Positions 1-6,867 of a stretch of DNA of 6,867 nucleotides are shown in pieces (the first letter of the stretch is position 1; every line of letters begins with the position of its first letter). Under the pieces are notes generated by a model that saw only the letters and a list, made by a program, of their open reading frames with translations, did not search any database and had not been told where the DNA came from. Where the stretch lies: IMG/VR virus record IMGVR_UViG_2690316345_000004, one strand, 5' to 3'. The translations under genes and the position numbers were made by a program. Origin of the DNA: a virus (Duplodnaviria; Heunggongvirae; Uroviricota; Caudoviricetes).

Positions 1-57
1 CCTGGCACGGCTGGGACGGAAGTCGCTGTCGTTCTCAAAATCGGTGGAGCTGCATGA
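1..57 (+). CDS. 3' end of an upstream gene (partial, product unknown, probably a tail protein)
   Basis: Frame 1 is open from position 1 to TGA at 55-57 and 12 of 18 codons start with G (typical coding periodicity). Frames 2 and 3 also terminate within the first 100 nt (98-100, 78-80), so the frame assignment is tentative. Confidence 0.3.
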
Positions 58-303
58 CAAAGTCATCGGGCATTATCTGAACATAAAACACTATCAATAA
101 GTTGGAGTCATTACCGGCTTACAGATGGGTACTTTGACTTAGACTATAACGGATTTACCTATCTCGCTAGCGGTGACTTTCTTGATATTTCTTCCAACTC
201 CGAAGAAAAAGAAATCAACAACAACGGGATCACTGTTAACGTTTCGAACGTTCGAGAAGAATACATTACTCTCATTCGAAATAAGCAATTCGATAAATCA
301 GAT

Positions 304-597
304 GTGAAAATCGAAATGGTATTCCTTAACCCTAACACGGGCAAGGTTGAAACCACTTACCCTGTTTTCCGTGGTGTAGTCGATAACATCAATATTTCTA
401 TTGACTACAAGGATAAAGAATGTACCAACGAATCAGAGTTCCAGCTTAATAGTATCTGGGAAGTTCTCGATAAAAACGCTCGTAGTCATGCTTCTGATGG
501 TATTCACCGCTCATACCCAGGAAACGAGGACGATCTATTCTTCTCAAGGGCGGGTAAGTGGCAATCAGAAAGCCGCTGGCATTCTTCTAAGAAATAA
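304..597 (+). CDS. putative phage tail-tip/assembly protein, family unresolved; start uncertain
   Basis: Frame 1 ORF ending TAA 595-597. The first canonical start is GTG 304 (ATG 316 is the alternative), and neither has a good Shine-Dalgarno. The frame is actually open from 58 with protein-like sequence (DGYFDLDYNGFTYLASGDF...), so the true N-terminus probably lies upstream. Position immediately before the tail-fiber gene suggests a tail-tip protein. Confidence 0.5.
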   Translation: MKIEMVFLNPNTGKVETTYPVFRGVVDNINISIDYKDKECTNESEFQLNSIWEVLDKNARSHASDGIHRSYPGNEDDLFFSRAGKWQSESRWHSSKK

Positions 598-643: not shown

Positions 644-1072
644 ATGCTAAAAACTAGGCTTATCACTGATTACATCAATTCATTAGTAGGTCAGGAGTTC
701 GTTCAAGGCGAGAATGATTGCAATTTAATTGCATGTAAGATCATCGATATTCTCGCTGGCACTGACCTATATAATTCTCTTTATAAAAAATATTCAACGA
801 AAGAAGAAGGCTTGAAAGTCTGTAAAGAACTTAGTGGATATACCAATATCCTCCAGCCTATCAAAGAACATTTTAAATTAGTTACTGATGATTTACAGGA
901 CGGCGACCTATTGATCCGCGATCACAAATTAGGAAACCGTAAGTATTACTCCGTGACTCCTTATTATTCCGGCTATGGACTCGTTACCGAAGATGGAATC
1001 TGGACGACCAAGCCGATTTACGAAATTGATTATAACGATGCTTATCGCTTTGGGGGTGATTTATGGGCGTAG
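644..1072 (+). CDS. putative tail assembly protein with NlpC/P60-like Cys...His arrangement (lambda gpK-like C-terminal domain)
   Basis: ATG 644 is preceded by GGAGGT (631-636) at 7-nt spacing. The ORF-track start at TTG 401 would overlap the previous gene by about 200 nt and is rejected. The product has a Cys in a GENDCNLIAC context and a downstream GDLLIRDH segment, reminiscent of NlpC/P60 catalytic Cys/His motifs. Stop TAG 1070-1072 overlaps the next start (ATGGGCGTAG). Confidence 0.6.
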   Translation: MLKTRLITDYINSLVGQEFVQGENDCNLIACKIIDILAGTDLYNSLYKKYSTKEEGLKVCKELSGYTNILQPIKEHFKLVTDDLQDGDLLIRDHKLGNRKYYSVTPYYSGYGLVTEDGIWTTKPIYEIDYNDAYRFGGDLWA

Positions 1073-4000
1073 AAGTATTGGTCGGCGCGGTTATTGCTGG
1101 TGCGTCGGCTGGGATGGCTGCTGCTTCCGTGGCGGCAATTTCAACATTAGCGGCTGTTGCTATCGGTATTGGTGCTGGTGCATTGTCTTTGATTGCTTCC
1201 ACTGTAGGCGCACCGAAAACACCGAAGGTACAAAGCCCAGATAACGCGGTGACATTAGGAACATCAAACGATCCGAAAGCGGTGATACCAGTTATTTTCG
1301 GTGTTACTCGCACTGGTACAAACTGTGTTTACAAAGCAATTTCTAAGAAAGAAAACAATAAGTTAGTGCAAGTATTTTCTGTAGCCGAGGGTGAAATCGA
1401 CCATTACAAAGCACTCTTTATTGATAATAAAAATGTTCTTGTTGGTAAGAACATGACGATCCGTGATGGTATTCTCGATAAGGGCAACATTAAAGAAGAA
1501 TACCGTAAAGTGTTAGAAGTCGAGTTCCGCACGGGTAAGAATCCTAACACCGCATTGTCACTGGCAAAAACTCATTTAGGCTCAGACTGGACCGATGCTT
1601 ACAAGGGTAACGGCATTGCAACCATGTGTATTGTGTTACGTCGTGATGACAAATCTCTTGCTGCTGGTGTTGATATTCTCCAGCCAAATAGCCAGGTAGC
1701 AGTAGACGTTTGCGGCCTTAAAATCCGTAACCTTGAAACCAATGCTATTGAGGCTAGCACCAACGGCGTGGACCAGATTTTCCACTACCTAACAAATGAA
1801 AAATATGGTCTTAGTGTACCAATTGAAAACATCAACGTTGATTCATTCCTGAAAGTACGTTCTCAAGTTCGCCAGATGAATTTGCACTCTAACGGTGCAT
1901 GTGATCCGAACGCCAGCTTTAAAGAGAACTTGACCGGATTGATGCAGACTTTCGGCGGGGTGATGTTTGAATCCTTTGGACGTATTACTCTGAAACTGGA
2001 TGCTCCTGATATTGTTAAGCATACCTTCAATGAAGACAATATCATGATGGGTAAAGTTAACCTGAAAACAGGTGGCACTAACGGTTATTTCAATACCATT
2101 AACGCAATCTATCAGGAACCATCAATCGACTATTCAGAGCAAATGCTACGTTATCCGGCTGATGCTGAAAATGATGCTACTATCCGTCAAGATGGGCGCA
2201 TTATTGCTAAAGACGTAGAATATCGCTTTGTTAAAGATGAAAACCAGATTGACAAATTAGCGAGCATTGAACGAAATAAATCTCGTATTACTCAGGTTAT
2301 CAACTTCACTACTACCGATGCATTCAGCGCGGAAGTCTGGGACGTTATCAGCGTTACCCACGATGAATTGAAACTGAATAATTCACTTTGGCGTATTATC
2401 TCTATTGAGCGTAGCATTGATTCTGGTATTGCTGGTATTTTGTCTATCACCGCCACAGAATATAATTCTCAGATTTACACAGATCTGGATTATGCGGCTA
2501 AACCGGACAATAGACCAAGTGGTTTACCGGATTCAATGACAGTACAGAAGCCTACTAATTTCAGAATTAAGGCAACTGGCGAGACGATTTACGGTAAAAA
2601 TGTTACTTTGACATGGGATGCACCGGAAGATTTTAACCGCTACGGCTTCCAGATTGATTACCGTGTAAGCGGATCACCTAACTGGATTAAGCTCGGTCAG
2701 ACTTCACAGCAAATTTTCAATGTCAATGCACTGGCTAAAGATCGCTCCTACGATTACCGAGTTTGTGCTTTCGGTATCATCGCGCGATCCGATTGGGTAG
2801 AACTGATTAACCAGAATCCGACTGTTACCTATGAATTGCCGACTCCGGTTATTCGAATCAAAAATCAGGGTAGCACGCCAGGAACTTTCGAAGGTAATGA
2901 TCTGATTATCGAATGGGATAACCAGCAAGGCTTAGATGTTGAGATCAACGGTGAAACTAACAAGTTTAGTGACCTGTTTGAAGCATACATTATCAAGGTG
3001 ACTAACAAGGCTGGTAAGTCTATTCAGTACCGTACCCGCGATCCTGAATCATGGACTTATACGCTTGATATGAACCAGTTTAACGGCCTTTCGCGTCAAC
3101 TGACGGTAGAAGTATCAGCTAAGGGATATAACAACTCAGAGAGCGCCCCAGCGCGTTTAGTGGCTATCAACCCACAACATAAGCCAATGAAAGGTTTTAG
3201 TGCGCGTGGTGGCTTTAATACTGCGTTTGTTAGCTGGGCGGATGACGTAGAACATGACTATGCAGGGTCAATCATCCAGTATGCAACCGACAACACTTTC
3301 TCAGATGCAAGGGCAGTAAGCACGAATAGTGTTAGCCATACTTCCTTTGATATTGCTGACGGTGATTATTATATCCGTGGTGCTCACTACGATATTTTCG
3401 GTATGGATGATGCTGTTTGGTCTGAACCGTATTTCATGCAAATGAAATCTACCATTAGCTGGGACGATCAGGACAAAGAAGCACTGGAAGACCTGATTGG
3501 TTTACAAGATCGCTTAGATGAAACCATCGCTGATGCTATTGCTCAAGCTGGCGCTAATGCCGATGCTAAAATTGATGCAATGCATAAGCAAATCACTACC
3601 GAGACGGGTAAAACTGTTCAAGCCTCAGCCGATACCTTAAAGAGTCTGATTGCTTCTGGTGATAAGGCAAGTTCAACTAAGATTGATCAGGTTAAAGCTG
3701 AACTGAAAGGCGATATCACCAAAGAAGTTAGCGCATCTGCTACTACCCTGAAACAAGCAATTGCAACCAGTGAGGCAGCAAGCGCAAGTAAGATTGACCA
3801 AGTTCGGGTAGAAATGGATGGCAAGATTGCTGGTGTGAATCAGGAAGCAGATGTAAAAATCGATGCTTTGAAAGGAACCATTAACAGCAAATACAATCTG
3901 GCAGTTAATGCAGATGGTCGCGTGGCTGGCATTCACATGAGCGCAACCAACGATCCGGCACAACCGACTAAAATCATCTTTACGGCTGATAAAATTGCTG

Positions 4001-4815
4001 TAGCTCCGCAGAACGGGACCGATGTTTGCCCGTTTGGTATCGAAGGTAACAAGGTTTATCTCGATAATGCGATGATTCGTAATGCTGCAATTGGCACAGC
4101 CCAGATTAATGATGCGGCAATTACTACCGCTAAGATCGGAAATGCTGCAATTAACAGCGCGAAGATTCAGGACGGGGCGATCACCAATGCGAAGATCGTA
4201 AACGGCGCAATTGATAATGCTAAAATTGGTAACTATATCCAGTCTTCAAACTGGAACGGATCTACCGGATGGCATATCAACAAGAACGGGTCCGCTACGT
4301 TCATGAACGCTACCGTTAAAGGTAATATCACGGCTGATTCTGGTACTCTGAACAACGTCACGATTAACTCTAGCTGTGTTATTAAGGGTATGCTTGAAGC
4401 TACTCAGGTTAAGGGTGATTTCGTTAAGGTGATTGGTAAGAAATTCCCTCATCGTCAACAAAACTGGCCTGATGGCACTGTTACGGTAAGGGTGGAAGAT
4501 GATCATAAGTTTGATCGCCAAATTGTGATTCCAGCTATTCACCATAACGGGTCTGTTCGTCGTGGCGAAAGTAGTGATCATTGGGACACTTGCCGATTAA
4601 TCGTTAAGAAAAATGGCTCTGTTCTATATGATCGCACGGCTACTTCTGGCAGCATGTACACAGGCGTTATTGACATGCCAGCGGGTAAAGGTGCTGTAAC
4701 GTTAACATTCCAAGTTATTTGTGATGGTGTTAACAACTATAACCCAAGTGCATATATCAGCGATCTAACAGTAATGGTAACTAAAAAAGCCACTACTGGT
4801 ATTACTGTTTCTTAA
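1063..4815 (+). CDS. central tail fiber / host specificity protein, lambda gpJ-like, with a gpI-like N-terminal module
   Basis: 1250-codon ORF with ATG 1063 preceded by GGGGGTGA (1052-1059). The C-terminal ~160 aa (EDDHKFDRQIVIP, IDMPAGKGAVTLTF, DLTVMVTKKATTGITVS) closely resemble the recalled C-terminal receptor-binding region of lambda J (TDDHPFDRQIVV, VDMPAGRGNVILTF, DVQVMVIKKQALGISVV). The middle holds FN3-like beta-sandwich segments and an Ala/Lys/Asp-rich coiled-coil stretch. The first ~95 aa are a Gly/Ala-rich hydrophobic segment followed by APKTPKV...VIPVIFGVTRTG, resembling the C-terminal half of lambda gpI. Confidence 0.92.
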   Translation: MGVEVLVGAVIAGASAGMAAASVAAISTLAAVAIGIGAGALSLIASTVGAPKTPKVQSPDNAVTLGTSNDPKAVIPVIFGVTRTGTNCVYKAISKKENNKLVQVFSVAEGEIDHYKALFIDNKNVLVGKNMTIRDGILDKGNIKEEYRKVLEVEFRTGKNPNTALSLAKTHLGSDWTDAYKGNGIATMCIVLRRDDKSLAAGVDILQPNSQVAVDVCGLKIRNLETNAIEASTNGVDQIFHYLTNEKYGLSVPIENINVDSFLKVRSQVRQMNLHSNGACDPNASFKENLTGLMQTFGGVMFESFGRITLKLDAPDIVKHTFNEDNIMMGKVNLKTGGTNGYFNTINAIYQEPSIDYSEQMLRYPADAENDATIRQDGRIIAKDVEYRFVKDENQIDKLASIERNKSRITQVINFTTTDAFSAEVWDVISVTHDELKLNNSLWRIISIERSIDSGIAGILSITATEYNSQIYTDLDYAAKPDNRPSGLPDSMTVQKPTNFRIKATGETIYGKNVTLTWDAPEDFNRYGFQIDYRVSGSPNWIKLGQTSQQIFNVNALAKDRSYDYRVCAFGIIARSDWVELINQNPTVTYELPTPVIRIKNQGSTPGTFEGNDLIIEWDNQQGLDVEINGETNKFSDLFEAYIIKVTNKAGKSIQYRTRDPESWTYTLDMNQFNGLSRQLTVEVSAKGYNNSESAPARLVAINPQHKPMKGFSARGGFNTAFVSWADDVEHDYAGSIIQYATDNTFSDARAVSTNSVSHTSFDIADGDYYIRGAHYDIFGMDDAVWSEPYFMQMKSTISWDDQDKEALEDLIGLQDRLDETIADAIAQAGANADAKIDAMHKQITTETGKTVQASADTLKSLIASGDKASSTKIDQVKAELKGDITKEVSASATTLKQAIATSEAASASKIDQVRVEMDGKIAGVNQEADVKIDALKGTINSKYNLAVNADGRVAGIHMSATNDPAQPTKIIFTADKIAVAPQNGTDVCPFGIEGNKVYLDNAMIRNAAIGTAQINDAAITTAKIGNAAINSAKIQDGAITNAKIVNGAIDNAKIGNYIQSSNWNGSTGWHINKNGSATFMNATVKGNITADSGTLNNVTINSSCVIKGMLEATQVKGDFVKVIGKKFPHRQQNWPDGTVTVRVEDDHKFDRQIVIPAIHHNGSVRRGESSDHWDTCRLIVKKNGSVLYDRTATSGSMYTGVIDMPAGKGAVTLTFQVICDGVNNYNPSAYISDLTVMVTKKATTGITVS
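4078..4227 (+). repeat. five tandem 30-nt (10-codon) repeats inside the J-like CDS
   Basis: Directly visible: RNAAIGTAQI / NDAAITTAKI / GNAAINSAKI / QDGAITNAKI / VNGAIDNAKI, each encoded by a 30-nt unit (e.g. aatgctgcaatt...aagat[ct]) in head-to-tail register. Confidence 0.85.
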
Positions 4816-4833
4816 AATTTAATTTTAATAATT

Positions 4834-4875
4834 AATCCCGCTTAATTCTTTTGGGTTAGGCGGGATTATTTTTAT
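4834..4875 (+). terminator. putative rho-independent terminator after the tail-fiber gene
   Basis: Inverted repeat aatcccgctt (4834-4843) / aggcgggatt (4858-4867), a 10-bp stem with one G-U pair and a 14-nt loop, followed by ATTTTTAT (4868-4875). It lies 19 nt after the J stop. Confidence 0.55.
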
Positions 4876-4920
4876 CTAAATAATTCTGCCATTAAACTAT
4901 ATAAAAATATCGGGGGCGTA

Positions 4921-5199
4921 ATGACTGAAATTATATATGGCGGTATCGGTGTTATCGCCTTAATTTGTGGTGGATTATGGAGGCTTCACCGAAATCAATT
5001 AGCCACAGAAAATAGATTGTCGAAATTAGAATCCAGCGACGCATTGTTAAACCAGAAGTTTGAGACGATGCAGAATAACCATACTCAGATTGCTGAACGT
5101 GTTTACCAAATGGAACAAACACTACACGGTATAGAGAAGAAAGTGGTTGCGATGGACGCCAAATTTGACCAAGTTCTCGACATACTCAAACAAAAATAA
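4921..5199 (+). CDS. hypothetical membrane-anchored coiled-coil protein (92 aa)
   Basis: ATG 4921 preceded by GGGGG (4912-4916). One N-terminal hydrophobic segment (IIYGGIGVIALICGGLW), a basic flank (RLHRNQ), then a heptad-like helical region. Ends with three in-frame stops TAATAATAA (5197-5205). Confidence 0.7.
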   Translation: MTEIIYGGIGVIALICGGLWRLHRNQLATENRLSKLESSDALLNQKFETMQNNHTQIAERVYQMEQTLHGIEKKVVAMDAKFDQVLDILKQK

Positions 5200-5217
5200 T
5201 AATAAAGGGGTGAATAT

Positions 5218-5388
5218 ATGAAGAATAAACTTAAGAAATATTTTGGTTATCTCTTGATTGTCGCCCTCACTTATAACGTAGCAATTAGACCTCTGCTTAC
5301 GTCCTTTGGGCTTGAACTCCCGGCTATGACCGTGGATGAACAATTGCTCAGGACACTGGCGGGGGTCTTTTCGTTATTAGGGGGCTAA
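5218..5388 (+). CDS. hypothetical small hydrophobic protein (56 aa), absent from the supplied ORF track
   Basis: ATG 5218 preceded by AAAGGGG (5205-5211). Translation: MKNKLKKYFGYLLIVALTYNVAIRPLLTSFGLELPAMTVDEQLLRTLAGVFSLLGG. Lys-rich N-terminus followed by a hydrophobic stretch. Stop TAA 5386-5388 lies 1 nt before the next ATG (TAACATG), indicating translational coupling; it fills the gap between two well-supported genes. Confidence 0.5.
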   Translation: MKNKLKKYFGYLLIVALTYNVAIRPLLTSFGLELPAMTVDEQLLRTLAGVFSLLGG

Positions 5389-5389
5389 C

Positions 5390-5995
5390 ATGGCTAATCC
5401 AATAATCACATCCAATATTGATAAAGTAAAAAAAGATATCAAGAGTTGGAAACAGAAAGCTAGTAATAGCTTTCATAGGGATTTGGGTTTAGCGGTCATA
5501 GATGAGCGGGTAAAGTTGCAGAAGAAAGTCAATTCAAGGATAGATCGACCGACCAAGTTCACACAGAAAGCGGTCAATTCATACAACCGGATACGCTCAA
5601 GCGGTAAAACGTCTTACCATAGTGTTTTCATCATGAAGAATCAGGAAAAATACTTAAAATATTACTTTGAAGGTGGTAATAATATCGAGAAATTTGTTCC
5701 TGTAACTGATGACCGAACTAACCAGTTTGGTAACATTCCACAACTCAGAAACGGTAAGAAAATAGGGAAGTATGTAACCACAAAATCTAAGACTGGTAAA
5801 ATACTGCTTCTCGATCCATCCGTTAAAGCCGACATGAACAACAAGAAAAAGCTAGGGAAGCGACTTGTTGCAGTGTTGAAGAAAACAGACCGTAGTAACA
5901 TCATGGGTAGTTGGAAAGATAATGAGAAAACGATGAAGAAGAATATCCAGAAGAAGATGAAAAAGCACTTCATGGGTAAAATCAACTTCGTTTAA
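5390..5995 (+). CDS. hypothetical lysine-rich basic protein (201 aa)
   Basis: ATG 5390 preceded by AGGGGG (5378-5383). Very Lys-rich, especially at the C-terminus (KKNIQKKMKKHFMGKINFV), with no obvious hydrophobic segment. The antisense ORF 5662-5985 is a low-complexity mirror of the Lys codons and is rejected. Confidence 0.75.
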   Translation: MANPIITSNIDKVKKDIKSWKQKASNSFHRDLGLAVIDERVKLQKKVNSRIDRPTKFTQKAVNSYNRIRSSGKTSYHSVFIMKNQEKYLKYYFEGGNNIEKFVPVTDDRTNQFGNIPQLRNGKKIGKYVTTKSKTGKILLLDPSVKADMNNKKKLGKRLVAVLKKTDRSNIMGSWKDNEKTMKKNIQKKMKKHFMGKINFV

Positions 5996-6003
5996 TCCAT
6001 AAA

Positions 6004-6029
6004 TACCCTCATAGAATCTTATGGGGGTA
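6004..6029 (+). promoter_or_regulatory. hairpin sequestering the Shine-Dalgarno of the 6034 gene
   Basis: taccctcata (6004-6013) pairs with tatgggggta (6020-6029): a 10-bp stem with one G-U pair and a 6-nt loop. The GGGGG at 6023-6027 is the RBS for ATG 6034. No T-tract follows, so it is not a terminator. Confidence 0.35.
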
Positions 6030-6033
6030 TAAC

Positions 6034-6381
6034 ATGGCTAAAAATATTTTCACTGAATTTCCTACTTATCCGGTCGACCAGCTTTCCGGTATTTTTATCA
6101 ATGGCATTAGCCCTGAATCAATGACACTTGATTACGAGGCGAAGAGAGTAAAGCATAAACAATTCAAGCAAATGATCCGCGATGATGGTAACGGGTTAGT
6201 GTTTTGTGTTGCGACACTCGCTAAACGTCCTAAATACCGCTTCCGTGTAGGGCAGGAGATTGATGTAGTTAACCCTTACAACTTCAATTGTATTGGTGAT
6301 GCACGAGCGGTATGCATAGGCACAGCACCTTATTACATTAAGGGACTCAGATTTATTGGGTATCTTATGCAATACATCTAA
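6034..6381 (+). CDS. hypothetical protein (115 aa)
   Basis: ATG 6034 with GGGGG 7 nt upstream. Ends TAA 6379-6381, immediately followed by the RBS of the next gene. No family recognised from sequence. Confidence 0.7.
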   Translation: MAKNIFTEFPTYPVDQLSGIFINGISPESMTLDYEAKRVKHKQFKQMIRDDGNGLVFCVATLAKRPKYRFRVGQEIDVVNPYNFNCIGDARAVCIGTAPYYIKGLRFIGYLMQYI

Positions 6382-6391
6382 AGGGGGTAAT

Positions 6392-6745
6392 ATGTTAAGC
6401 AAGCATTTTTCTCGCAAGGAATTTAAATGTAAATGCGGAAAATGTGATTATGATACTATCGACGCTGAACTGCTGGTAATTCTTGAGGATGTACGCGAAC
6501 ACTTCGGGAAACCAGTAATTATTAACAGCGGGAACCGTTGTCCGACTCATAATAAGAATGTAGGCGGTGCAACCAATAGCTACCATGTTCGAGGCCGTGC
6601 GGTTGATATTGTAGTGAAAGGCGTCTCGCCTGATATTGTCCATGCTTATCTTGATGGGAAATATCCTACCAAGTATGGCTTAGGAAAGTATAAAACCTTC
6701 ACGCACATTGATAGTCGTTCAACGAAATCACGCTGGCATGGATAA
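6392..6745 (+). CDS. peptidase M15 family zinc metallopeptidase (Peptidase_M15_3 / YcbK-like fold), putative endolysin
   Basis: ATG 6392 preceded by AGGGGG (6382-6387); the TTG 6356 start in the ORF track is rejected. Motifs INSGNRCPTHNKNVGGATNSYHVRGRAVD and FTHID match the His-x6-Asp ... His zinc-binding signature of M15 peptidases. No signal peptide or SAR-like N-terminus. Confidence 0.85.
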   Translation: MLSKHFSRKEFKCKCGKCDYDTIDAELLVILEDVREHFGKPVIINSGNRCPTHNKNVGGATNSYHVRGRAVDIVVKGVSPDIVHAYLDGKYPTKYGLGKYKTFTHIDSRSTKSRWHG

Positions 6746-6816
6746 AATTAAAGCGCCTCTAGTGGGTAATGCCGATCAGTTAAGGATCAGTTGACCGATC
6801 CAGTGGCTGTGTAAGA

Positions 6817-6850
6817 ATCCGGAAACGCTCACTTGTTTCCGGATTTTTTT
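6817..6850 (+). terminator. rho-independent terminator
   Basis: Perfect 10-bp inverted repeat atccggaaac (6817-6826) / gtttccggat (6835-6844) with an 8-nt loop, followed by a run of seven T (6844-6850). Confidence 0.7.
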
Positions 6851-6867
6851 ATGCACATTGGACAGGC

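Follow-up and report, generated by a model that had tools for sequence, protein, structure and literature searches.

The window analysed here is a 6867-nt stretch of Caudoviricetes DNA (IMG/VR record IMGVR_UViG_2690316345_000004). Its last phage gene, at 6392-6745, appears to encode a soluble M15 endolysin with no holin or spanin gene beside it. How would such an enzyme be released? The original prediction, made from the sequence alone, offered two options: a lysis cassette split across the genome, or two small membrane proteins of 92 and 56 aa, encoded upstream, acting as non-canonical holin or antiholin components.

A prophage fragment between IS1 and IS4

The window is a 6.65-kb prophage fragment, defective here, with an IS1 end on one side and an IS4 end on the other. 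This was overlooked in the original prediction.

1..115, strand not assigned: terminal part of IS1, matched at 99-100% identity by the IS1 ends of many phage and E. coli records; left boundary.
~6767..6867 (+/- 3 nt), strand not assigned: terminal part of IS4, 99% identical to IS4 ends; right boundary.

These near-identical ends abut the points where homology to the intact prophage stops; on the IS1 side the homology begins at 116. The surviving phage piece extends from a truncated tail hub gene to the endolysin gene. Because the remnant is defective, there may be no lysis partner at all in the 'rest of the genome', and the absence of a partner inside an IS-bounded remnant is uninformative by itself. 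For genome annotation, the practical lesson is that the locus is an IS-bounded defective remnant. A plasmid search and an Rfam search gave nothing relevant. The junction between phage and IS4 sequence matched neither the GTDB representative genomes nor the complete E. coli genomes, and the source is probably a draft genome of Escherichia or Shigella.

The IS4 insertion has also damaged the end of the late operon.

6746..6766, +: left half of the native bidirectional late-operon terminator, from alignment with the prophage RMDEC332.

In the intact relative this terminator reads AAAGCGCC-tctagt-GGGCGCUUUUUU (dG -12.8). Insertion at ~6766/6767 splits it, and by folding the hairpin is intact in RMDEC332 and lost in the window. 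The original statement that a terminator follows the endolysin thus stands in part: a hairpin with a U-run is present at 6813-6850 (dG -18.8, z -5.5), but it lies inside the IS4 sequence and is not the phage's own.

Intact relatives show what the remnant has lost. The family consists of temperate siphophages of Enterobacterales, which encode a large serine recombinase and use hicB or ycdX as the site of integration. Members occur in 54 of 5,426 complete E. coli genomes and also in Salmonella and Providencia; among cultured-phage records only DCP80 was found to have this module, and a literature search on the prophage family found no paper. The value of the locus lies in its context, a fairly widespread prophage family. 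Loci from other genera that were anchored on terL stop short of the lysis end of those prophages.

In the intact E. coli, Salmonella and Providencia relatives the late genes end with the M15 gene, behind which come only helicase and serine-recombinase genes on the opposite strand. No holin or spanin was found downstream of it. A holin-spanin pair in that position was the check set beforehand for the claim that the endolysin has no canonical holin or spanin next to it, and the claim holds in these genomes. Nor does the prophage family include a recognisable member of any holin or spanin family.

The endolysin gene

6392..6745, +: M15A (Peptidase_M15_3) zinc peptidase, 117 aa, predicted soluble endolysin; ATG start with a GGGGG Shine-Dalgarno sequence.

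This gene is nucleotide-identical to its counterpart in the intact RMDEC332 prophage. Its identification as an M15 endolysin-type peptidase is agreed upon by Pfam, PHROG and motif evidence. The product matches PF08291 (Peptidase_M15_3; E 3.2e-28, 98.4 bits against a cut-off of 23.2), with residues 4-107 aligned to profile positions 1-108 of 108, and PHROG 894 'endolysin' (E 3e-45). The SxHxxGxAxD motif is S63-Y-H65-V-R-G-R-A-V-D72, aligned to the zinc ligands of 1LBU, and the zinc triad is H65/D72/H105, with H105 inside an FTHID motif. These three residues and R49, Y100 and D107 are invariant in an alignment with phage homologues. Over its full length the protein is 60-63% identical to annotated endolysins of Zindervirus, Vectrevirus and Acadevirus phages (SP6-like).

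The SP6-like Autographiviridae endolysins and LysPM1 of Proteus phage Homer are likewise single domains of ~116 aa without an export signal, and share the SxHxxGxAxD motif, the H/D/H triad and the Arg, Tyr and Asp residues; by motif position H65/D72/H105 correspond to LysPM1 H63/D70/H104. LysPM1 was lytic and metal-dependent by experiment, and muralytic, metal-dependent activity was shown for the homologues LysPM1, ST79 and Spp64 (PMC13461873). The host elements differ: the SP6-like phages are lytic podophages in which the endolysin gene follows the terminase genes, whereas here a temperate siphophage with a serine recombinase has its M15 gene at the end of the tail operon.

The enzyme has no signal peptide or SAR segment. 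Its N-terminus (MLSKHFSRKEFKCK) is charged and hydrophilic, the maximum hydropathy over 17 residues is KD 1.02 in mid-protein, and an alternative TTG start upstream of the ORF contributes no hydrophobic stretch. From these features 6392-6745 is predicted to encode a soluble, cytoplasmic, Zn-dependent M15A peptidoglycan peptidase, which, lacking an export signal, would need a holin, as was originally proposed. In intact phages it would act as the endolysin, freed through holes made by a holin in the inner membrane. In two distant relatives, DCP80 and locus L091, a T4-type lysozyme (PF00959) occupies the M15 position; replacement of one enzyme by the other at a single position is the classical signature of an endolysin swap. 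The enzyme itself adds little that is new, since endolysins of the M15A type have been described before, among them a characterised close relative.

Tail genes and operon layout

Upstream of the endolysin lie the genes of a tail-tip module and a late operon that starts behind a strong terminator.

118..597, +: tail hub gene, 3' part (DUF2163 / phiJL001 Gp84-like); the first 58 codons were lost to the IS1 insertion.
644..1072, +: DUF6950 protein, 142 aa, tail-tip module gene (Pfam PF22262, E 5.7e-11; same annotation in relatives).
1063..4815, +: J-like tail tip / host-specificity protein, 1250 aa (Pfam Ig_GpJ_C 3e-35, Phage_Tail_Tip 2e-22).
4833..4868, +: strong intrinsic terminator, a 16-bp stem followed by a T-run (dG -23.2, z -6.4), separating J from the 92-aa gene.
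5390..5995, +: p201, basic protein of 201 aa, most likely a lambda gpZ-type tail-completion protein.
6034..6381, +: p115, soluble beta-barrel protein of 115 aa, whose position would fit a gpU-type partner of the gpZ-like gene.

The translation of 118..597 is identical to residues 59-217 of the hub protein in RMDEC332 (RefSeq name 'DUF2163 domain-containing protein'), and the PHROG match of 1063..4815 is tail fibre / central tail fibre J. Past the J terminator the gene order is p92, p56, p201, p115, endolysin.

The link of p201 to tail completion goes through its homologues, for which an exhaustive phmmer search gave 49 clusters. Matches were to PHROG 1924 'minor tail protein' in 36 of 46 (best 7e-51), to PHROG 27 'tail completion or Neck1' in 16 of 46 and to Pfam Minor_tail_Z in 8 of 46. 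The p201 of the window itself reaches PHROG 1924 at E 0.003 only and is below the Pfam threshold, and its hhalign comparison with lambda Z is weak (probability 8%). It differs from lambda gpZ also in that its gene sits after J and not before the major tail gene. Taken with its homologues, p201 most likely serves tail completion in the manner of lambda gpZ, and not lysis. The earlier reading thus missed that at least one of the genes separating the membrane proteins from the endolysin is probably a virion gene of tail-completion type. It was correct that the 115-aa product encoded directly upstream of the endolysin is not obviously membrane-embedded; p115 has no hydrophobic segment.

The p92 and p56 membrane proteins

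4921..5199, +: p92, 92 aa, with an N-terminal TMD and a helical, coiled-coil-like tail; candidate holin, antiholin or releasin-like protein.
5218..5388, +: p56, 56-aa membrane protein, Lys-rich at the N-terminus, with a single clear TMD and a C-terminal tail of weak hydrophobicity; candidate holin.

These are the sole membrane candidates, as had been proposed, and they lie further upstream with p201 and p115 in between. In p92 the TMD comprises residues 4-20 (KD 2.02) and is followed by a basic junction, WRLHRN, and a tail of ~70 aa; the predicted topology is N-out/C-in. The protein is under purifying selection (dN/dS 0.08) and is conserved across E. coli, Salmonella and Providencia, where the motif GGLW.LHRNQ..TE.R is invariant. 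A homologue is found in L091 (E 5e-8) and proteins of like architecture in DCP80 and in loci L092-94; against Pfam p92 gives coiled-coil noise only.

The hydrophobic segment of p56 is residues 12-28 (KD 1.63). Its conservation is 69-100% identity, again with purifying selection (dN/dS 0.13-0.16), and tblastn identity with the counterparts in L092-94 is 34-36%. Both p56 and its positional counterpart in DCP80 weakly match PHROG 2024, whose function is unassigned there. For p92, p56 and their distant counterparts, no holin family match was found in Pfam, PHROGs or NCBIfam. The wider IMG/VR relatives of p92, p56 and p201 come mostly from the same 26 contigs. The topologies of p92 and p56 are non-canonical for holins.

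Several observations point to this pair. Both proteins are small, bear TMDs and share an operon with the endolysin, tightly packed with it in one transcription unit behind the strong terminator, but they are two genes (p201 and p115) apart from M15. No other membrane protein was found in all the lineages sampled (E. coli, Salmonella, Providencia, DCP80 and L091-L094), and the two persist in distant relatives where the T4-type lysozyme stands in for M15; neither of these partner enzymes has an export signal. With this conservation across a change of endolysin type, the option of a non-canonical holin/antiholin formed by the 92- and 56-aa proteins survives.

The closest parallel in architecture is Mu gp25, the 'releasin' (DUF2730), a 99-aa N-out/C-in protein with four periplasmic residues, a basic junction and a function in lysis (PMC9239132). 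Shared with p92 (92 aa) are its size, a TMD at the extreme N-terminus, ~3-4 external residues, the basic junction, a predicted ~70-aa helical cytoplasmic domain, late expression and proximity to an endolysin. The endolysin on which Mu gp25 acts is of the SAR type, whereas that of the window would be soluble. Homology of p92 to gp25/DUF2730 was considered and rejected as not significant, leaving an analogy of architecture only. The p92 of the window has no match to Pfam DUF2730 at E <= 0.1, and its homologue in L092 reaches E 0.064, below threshold. Comparison with DUF2730 gave a BLASTP E of 0.006 and hhalign probabilities of 4-53%; the highest (53%, E 1.4e-4) came from a gp25-homologue profile and covers the C-terminal helix only, and the p92 profile against gp25 alone gave 4-5%.

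We tentatively explain the locus as a soluble M15 endolysin with p56/p92 as its likeliest holin providers and lysis independent of a spanin. Encoded in the same operon as the endolysin, p56 and p92 would most likely provide its release: p56 would be the hole-former, p92 would be its membrane-tethered cytoplasmic partner, antiholin- or releasin-like, and disruption of the outer membrane would proceed without a spanin. For the holin role taken separately, p56/p92 is a plausible but tentative assignment, and a provider other than this pair or the protein encoded after terS (see below) is unlikely. We regard as rather doubtful the stronger proposition that p92 and p56 jointly form a previously undescribed holin system, exporting either an M15A peptidase or a T4-type lysozyme for spanin-free lysis. 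Such a system would combine a Mu-gp25-like tethered coiled coil (p92) with a PHROG 2024 protein (p56) in serine-recombinase temperate siphophages of Enterobacterales.

Against a holin role, the pair always accompanies J and the gpZ-like gene, and in L092-L094 it is found within the tail module with no endolysin nearby. Because of this company, p92 and p56 could instead be tail-related, entry-related or a superinfection-exclusion pair.

A possible holin gene behind terS

The other option, a split lysis cassette, survives as well, and intact E. coli relatives supply a concrete candidate: a small polytopic protein with two or three TMDs, encoded just after terS and outside the window. On this account p92 and p56 would be otherwise employed, and the M15 gene of the remnant would be an orphan without a partner in cis. 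On the circular genome, ~9 kb separates the gene from that of the endolysin. Its product is either a single protein of 92 or 94 aa with three TMDs or a pair of 56-59 aa and 57 aa. We consider that this protein may be the holin, although somewhat doubtfully.

The topology, with 2-3 TMDs, is like that of class I/II holins, the gene has late orientation on the strand of terS, and the C-terminal tails are short and partly basic (..SNKDTK, ..FKQTK, ..CCKKDTK). Of the 25 closest IMG/VR loci, 24 encode such proteins, in three allelic forms, and so do three complete genomes. Allelic diversity is typical of holins. The SP6-like phages, which have the closest M15 endolysins, also place the holin beside terS, with terminase genes between it and the endolysin. 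A holin encoded apart from its endolysin is not unusual: the lysis genes of T7 and the SP6-like phages are split. Where terminase genes intervene in the SP6-like phages, two putative virion genes separate the endolysin of the window from its nearest membrane proteins.

The post-terS family is narrow, however, with five protein clusters, all from E. coli, and most of the gene is shared at the DNA level by only 2 of 63 genomes. Among the more distant sequences covered, namely the terS relatives L125-L128, the Atlantibacter locus L063 and DCP80, the slot holds no such gene. A variable gene near the prophage end, behind a gap of 90-130 bp after terS, would also fit a moron, a small toxin or an exclusion gene, and the proteins match no holin HMM. 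The 3-TMD protein was set aside as a family-wide holin, the sequence family being narrow, although nearly all E. coli-type relatives have a gene in this slot.

Should p92/p56 or the post-terS protein be shown to be a holin, it would be a new holin family. This might also assign a function to gp25-like tethered proteins paired with cytoplasmic endolysins, a matter that the Mu releasin paper leaves open.

A possible non-lytic role for the M15 peptidase

The peptidase might alternatively be virion- or tail-associated, or some other non-lytic wall peptidase, with lysis genes elsewhere or absent. Its gene ends the tail module, right behind the gpZ-like gene and p115, and the M15_3 domain is found also in larger phage peptidases that are not endolysins (PHROGs 17373 and 25247, 'peptidase'). 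The product is, however, a bare 117-aa catalytic domain with nothing for anchoring in a virion, and its full-length identity is to SP6-like endolysins, with a homologue that is lytic. Moreover, a free T4-type lysozyme takes its position in relatives, and the annotation of the intact prophage shows no second muralytic gene in all its 40 kb. These points make a non-lytic role very unlikely.

Disruption of the outer membrane

The original prediction reported no Cys-containing lipoprotein ORF in 4921-5400. This was borne out over a wider range: with every start codon in all frames of the + strand of 4701-6867 considered, no lipobox ORF of at least 25 aa was found. The late region of the intact prophage and the surroundings of the DCP80 counterpart likewise gave no convincing lipoprotein ORF, and there was no ORF with the N-terminal lipoprotein signal and C-terminal TMD of a unimolecular spanin.

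That p92 is itself an i-spanin-like periplasmic coiled coil with an unrecognised outer-membrane partner is most improbable: it has the N-terminal TMD and coiled coil of such proteins, and its 153-aa counterpart in DCP80 weakly matches PHROG 739 'Rz-like spanin' (E 0.001), but that match is at the level of coiled-coil noise, all p92 homologues have an acidic or neutral N-terminus and basic residues after the TMD, so that by the positive-inside rule the coiled coil is predicted to be cytoplasmic (N-out/C-in), and neither the window nor the intact prophage nor DCP80 has a lipobox ORF within, overlapping or close to the gene.

The favored explanation, a soluble M15 endolysin with p56/p92 as holin providers, would differ from the SP6-like systems in this step. 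The phages K1-5, K1E and SP6 are recorded as having a two-component spanin (PMC6139136), and the annotation of UAB_Phi78 places an 'Rz-like spanin' downstream of the endolysin; none was found here. Having no identifiable i/o-spanin or u-spanin, the window is like the spanin-less phage phiKT, whose gp28 'disruptin' is a small cationic amphipathic peptide; no comparable peptide was identified in the window, and its one strongly cationic protein, p201, is most likely of tail-completion type. As a cationic outer-membrane 'disruptin', p201 was rejected, since its homologues fall into families of tail-completion and minor tail proteins. Among phages that infect Gram-negative hosts, about 15% are likewise without an identifiable spanin (10.1101/515445).

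An IS-bounded prophage remnant

The late phage genes in the window form a single co-oriented run. Those upstream of the endolysin-type gene (117 aa; M15 below) are named by product length in amino acids.

Late phage genes in the window
118-597, +, tail-hub gene, 3′ part
644-1072, +, DUF6950 gene
1063-4815, +, J-like tail-tip gene, 1250 aa (Ig_GpJ_C, 3e-35; Phage_Tail_Tip, 2e-22)
4921-5199, +, p92
5218-5388, +, p56
5390-5995, +, p201
6034-6381, +, p115
6392-6745, +, M15 gene

The last five genes are closely packed, each preceded by a GGGGG-type ribosome-binding site. Positions 1-115 match an IS1 end (99-100%) and the sequence from about 6764-6767 to 6867 matches an IS4 end (99%). Aligned with the closest intact relative, a prophage of Escherichia coli RMDEC332, homology begins at 116, within the hub gene, whose first 58 codons were removed by IS1, and ends at 6766, 21 nt past the M15 stop codon. 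The window is thus a 6.65-kb IS-bounded prophage remnant, and this truncation makes the fragment defective. Its phage/IS4 junction was not found in complete E. coli genomes or GTDB representative genomes.

The original prediction placed a terminator after the endolysin gene; a hairpin with a U-run is indeed present at 6813-6850 (dG -18.8), within IS4, and is not the phage's own. The native late-operon terminator, AAAGCGCC-tctagt-GGGCGCUUUUUU in the relative, is halved in the window by IS4, whose insertion point falls inside the stem-loop. A very strong intrinsic terminator occupies the J/p92 intergenic region at 4833-4868 (16-bp stem, dG -23.2, z -6.4). Downstream of it are p201 and p115, both putative virion genes, and the endolysin gene; its position therefore implies that transcription passes it by read-through or antitermination, or that these genes have a late promoter of their own. 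Such a promoter, if used, would lie in the ~50-nt gap between this terminator and p92, where no convincing sigma-70 promoter was found.

Intact relatives

The segment (at least 80% of its length, 85-97% identity) occurs in 54 of 5,426 complete E. coli genomes. The RMDEC332 copy, 97% identical overall with nucleotide-identical M15 and p56 genes, is part of a ~40-kb prophage in hicB; a sister prophage, in strain STEC1575, is located in ycdX. Late genes run in the order terL, portal, capsid, connectors, fibre, tube, chaperones, tape measure, distal tail protein, hub, DUF6950, J, p92, p56, p201, p115, M15. M15 is always the final late gene in intact relatives. A bidirectional terminator comes next, and beyond it the genes lie on the opposite strand; they include one for a UvsW-like helicase and end with one for a large serine recombinase. 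The five-gene end from p92 to M15 is also found in Salmonella and Providencia prophages, with identities to the window genes of 53-72% (p92), 69-84% (p56) and 65-76% (M15).

In this prophage family the recombinase is ~560 aa long and splits hicB (RMDEC332 and strain 14EC029) or ycdX (STEC1575). Recognisable early genes are very few (UvsW-like helicase, UvsY in Salmonella, Rha), and terS and terL are ~8 kb apart with other genes between. The left end carries variable opposite-strand accessory genes in all three strains; the lysozyme-inhibitor-like gene is a curious one to find within a prophage of this family.

Accessory genes at the left prophage end
L002 (RMDEC332) 27813-28385, -, lipoprotein, 190 aa
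L102 (14EC029) 901-1680, -, annotated 'lysozyme inhibitor LprI family protein'
L101 (STEC1575) 9428-9991, -, 187-aa protein with a C-terminal TMD

The endolysin

The M15-family ORF at 6392-6745 is real: its product matches Peptidase_M15_3 at 98 bits (cut-off 23) and PHROG 894 'endolysin' at 3e-45, and an N-terminal hydrophobic stretch is absent, as claimed for an endolysin without signal or SAR segment. In alignment, its SxHxxGxAxD motif (S63..D72) coincides with the zinc-binding residues of 1LBU, the M15A type enzyme, and R49, Y100, H105 (in FTHID) and D107 are invariant in the alignment with phage homologues. Motif and invariant residues match by motif position those defined for LysPM1, an M15_3 endolysin (116 aa) from a Proteus phage; LysPM1 is lytic by experiment, is inactivated by EDTA and is partly rescued by Zn2+/Ca2+ (PMC13461873). 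The M15 gene is a further member of an already known endolysin family.

The endolysin slot classically shows muralytic enzymes exchanged at a fixed position, and such an exchange is seen in two distant relatives. In Escherichia phage DCP80, the J homologue (40% identity) is followed by an unannotated 153-aa protein with an N-terminal TMD and coiled coil, an endonuclease VII-like gene, an unannotated 57-aa membrane protein and homologues of p201 (33%) and p115 (32%, E 5e-10); a T4-type lysozyme (PF00959) lies one opposite-strand gene past the p115 homologue, with terS next. On the IMG/VR contig L091, genes for a p92 homologue (E 5e-8) and a membrane protein of 57 aa are accompanied by a gpZ-like gene and a homologue of p115 (E 8e-21). 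The stop codon of this p115 homologue is overlapped by a T4-type lysozyme gene, with an opposite-strand serine recombinase after it. Both T4-type lysozymes lack a hydrophobic N-terminus. The T4-type lysozyme in place of M15 at the same position argues strongly that the M15 gene encodes the lysis enzyme. Two further points count in support: the DUF6950 gene, which adjoins J, belongs to the tail module, and the annotations of the intact RMDEC332 and STEC1575 prophages show no second muralytic gene.

By its classification the DCP80 record (L060, PQ671644.1) is a T4-like Gaprivervirus, and motA is present in it, yet its first ~26 kb hold a siphophage-type tail tip, the lysis module described above and a terS like lambda Nu1; it may be a chimeric assembly. 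Its two small membrane-protein genes are unannotated in it.

Holin candidates

The 92-aa and 56-aa products were correctly named as membrane-protein candidates (one TMD each) and the 115-aa product is, as stated, not obviously membrane-embedded, p115 being not hydrophobic. For the holin role we place p92/p56 narrowly and tentatively first, though as less likely than not, on account of their family-wide presence: they are the only membrane proteins found in all lineages sampled. They are under purifying selection (dN/dS 0.08-0.16) and share a transcription unit with the endolysin gene, behind the J terminator. The TMD of p92 begins at residue 4 and leads, by way of an invariant basic junction (GGLW-R/K-LHRNQ), into a ~70-residue helical tail; all homologues have an acidic or neutral N-terminus and a basic post-TMD flank, a charge pattern that predicts an N-out/C-in topology. 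This predicted architecture of N-terminal TMD, basic junction and cytoplasmic helical domain resembles that of the Mu gp25 'releasin' (DUF2730), a 99-aa protein encoded near the endolysin, in which four residues are periplasmic and a basic junction precedes a cytoplasmic domain of 73 aa; DUF2730 members also accompany cytoplasmic endolysins, where their function is not known (PMC9239132). Comparison of p92 and its relatives with DUF2730/gp25 gave a BLASTP E of 0.006, hhalign probabilities of 4-53% and one sub-threshold Pfam match. p56 and its DCP80 counterpart weakly match PHROG 2024, a family without assigned function, and neither p92 nor p56 matches holin families. Whether p92/p56 are a new holin or releasin-like pair is the question of main interest here.

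Only slightly less likely as a candidate is the small membrane protein (or proteins) whose gene directly follows terS, in the same orientation, in intact relatives of the E. coli type. Surveyed also in loci L103-L131, this slot holds three alternative sets of small, very hydrophobic proteins with short, partly basic C-termini.

Forms of the post-terS slot
L002 (RMDEC332) 29551-29829, 92 aa, 3 TMDs
L101 (STEC1575) 11046-11330, 94 aa, 3 TMDs
L102 (14EC029) 2614-3020, ORFs of 56-59 aa (1 TMD) and 57 aa (2 TMDs), unannotated in RefSeq

Of the 25 closest IMG/VR loci, 24 carry one of the three forms; the topology of these proteins is class I/II-like and their allelic diversity holin-like. The layout resembles that of SP6-like phages, in which the holin abuts terS and the terminase genes stand between it and the closely related M15 endolysin. 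However, the protein family is narrow in sequence, more distant relatives have no gene in the slot, no holin HMM matches these proteins, and morons, too, are typically variable genes close to a prophage end.

The p92/p56 pair always accompanies J and the gpZ-like gene, which counts against a holin role. The distant IMG/VR contigs L092-L094 carry a permuted tail module with the order tube, DUF6950, J, p92-like, HNH, p56-like, gpZ-like, p115-like, G/T chaperones, tape measure. The block from J to p115 thus sits between tube and chaperone/tape-measure genes with no endolysin nearby, and together these associations make a tail-, entry- or exclusion-related function of p92/p56 possible. Genes for a distal tail protein, a hub and an endolysin were not seen in L092-L094, and in L093 and L094 the module directly adjoins a host gene for a ybiS-like L,D-transpeptidase; the three contigs probably represent elements that are rearranged and defective. 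In several distant relatives the junction of the p92-like and p56-like genes is occupied, precisely, by an endonuclease VII/HNH-like gene (151-165 aa), which looks like a homing endonuclease targeting that site.

Endonuclease VII/HNH-like inserts
L060 (DCP80) 6337-6804
L092 6341-6796
L093 6338-6835
L094 6320-6817

Whichever candidate holds, it is ordinary for a holin gene to lie apart from the endolysin gene. The holin of this unstudied phage family is not yet identifiable by homology.

Spanins

No lipobox ORF occurs on the + strand in 4701-6867 with all start codons considered, in agreement with the reported lack of a Cys-containing lipoprotein ORF in 4921-5400, and neither a two-component nor a unimolecular spanin was detectable in the window or the intact prophage. 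The sole lipoprotein of the RMDEC332 prophage is the 190-aa opposite-strand accessory protein at its end. The 153-aa DCP80 protein weakly matches PHROG 'Rz-like spanin' (E 0.001); the match is at coiled-coil noise level and the predicted topology is wrong for an i-spanin. [quoted passage not shown]

The original prediction, an M15 endolysin without adjacent canonical holin or spanin, was correct as an observation and right in part as interpretation. A holin-spanin pair directly downstream, named there as counter-evidence, is absent from every intact relative; the apparent want of lysis partners is partly a truncation artefact and partly a real property of the phage family. The interest of the locus is modest.

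p201, p115 and DUF6950

An exhaustive HMMER search gave 49 protein clusters of p201 relatives (about 180-227 aa). Among 46 aligned homologues, 36 match PHROG 1924 'minor tail protein' (best 7e-51), 16 match PHROG 27 'tail completion or Neck1 protein' and eight match Pfam Minor_tail_Z (lambda gpZ family), and p201 is therefore a probable gpZ-type tail-completion protein. The window p201 itself matches PHROG 1924 only marginally (E 0.003), and hhalign with lambda Z alone gives a weak result. The idea that the very basic p201 is an outer-membrane 'disruptin' was dropped, given these homologues. The gpZ-like gene is mosaic in the E. coli family (L067-L090 against window 5390-5995): most IMG/VR relatives sharing an identical p92 have a 227-aa allele (P0077), ~36-40% identical to the 201-aa allele of the window. 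p115 always follows the gpZ-like gene, and from this position we guess that it is a gpU-like partner of gpZ; BFVD and comparison with lambda U gave nothing.

The DUF6950 protein (644-1072), in which a 'GENDC' motif was spotted by eye at residues ~22-26, appears to take the place that belongs to an NlpC/P60 cell-wall peptidase in tail-tip modules of the GTA and lambda gpK types.
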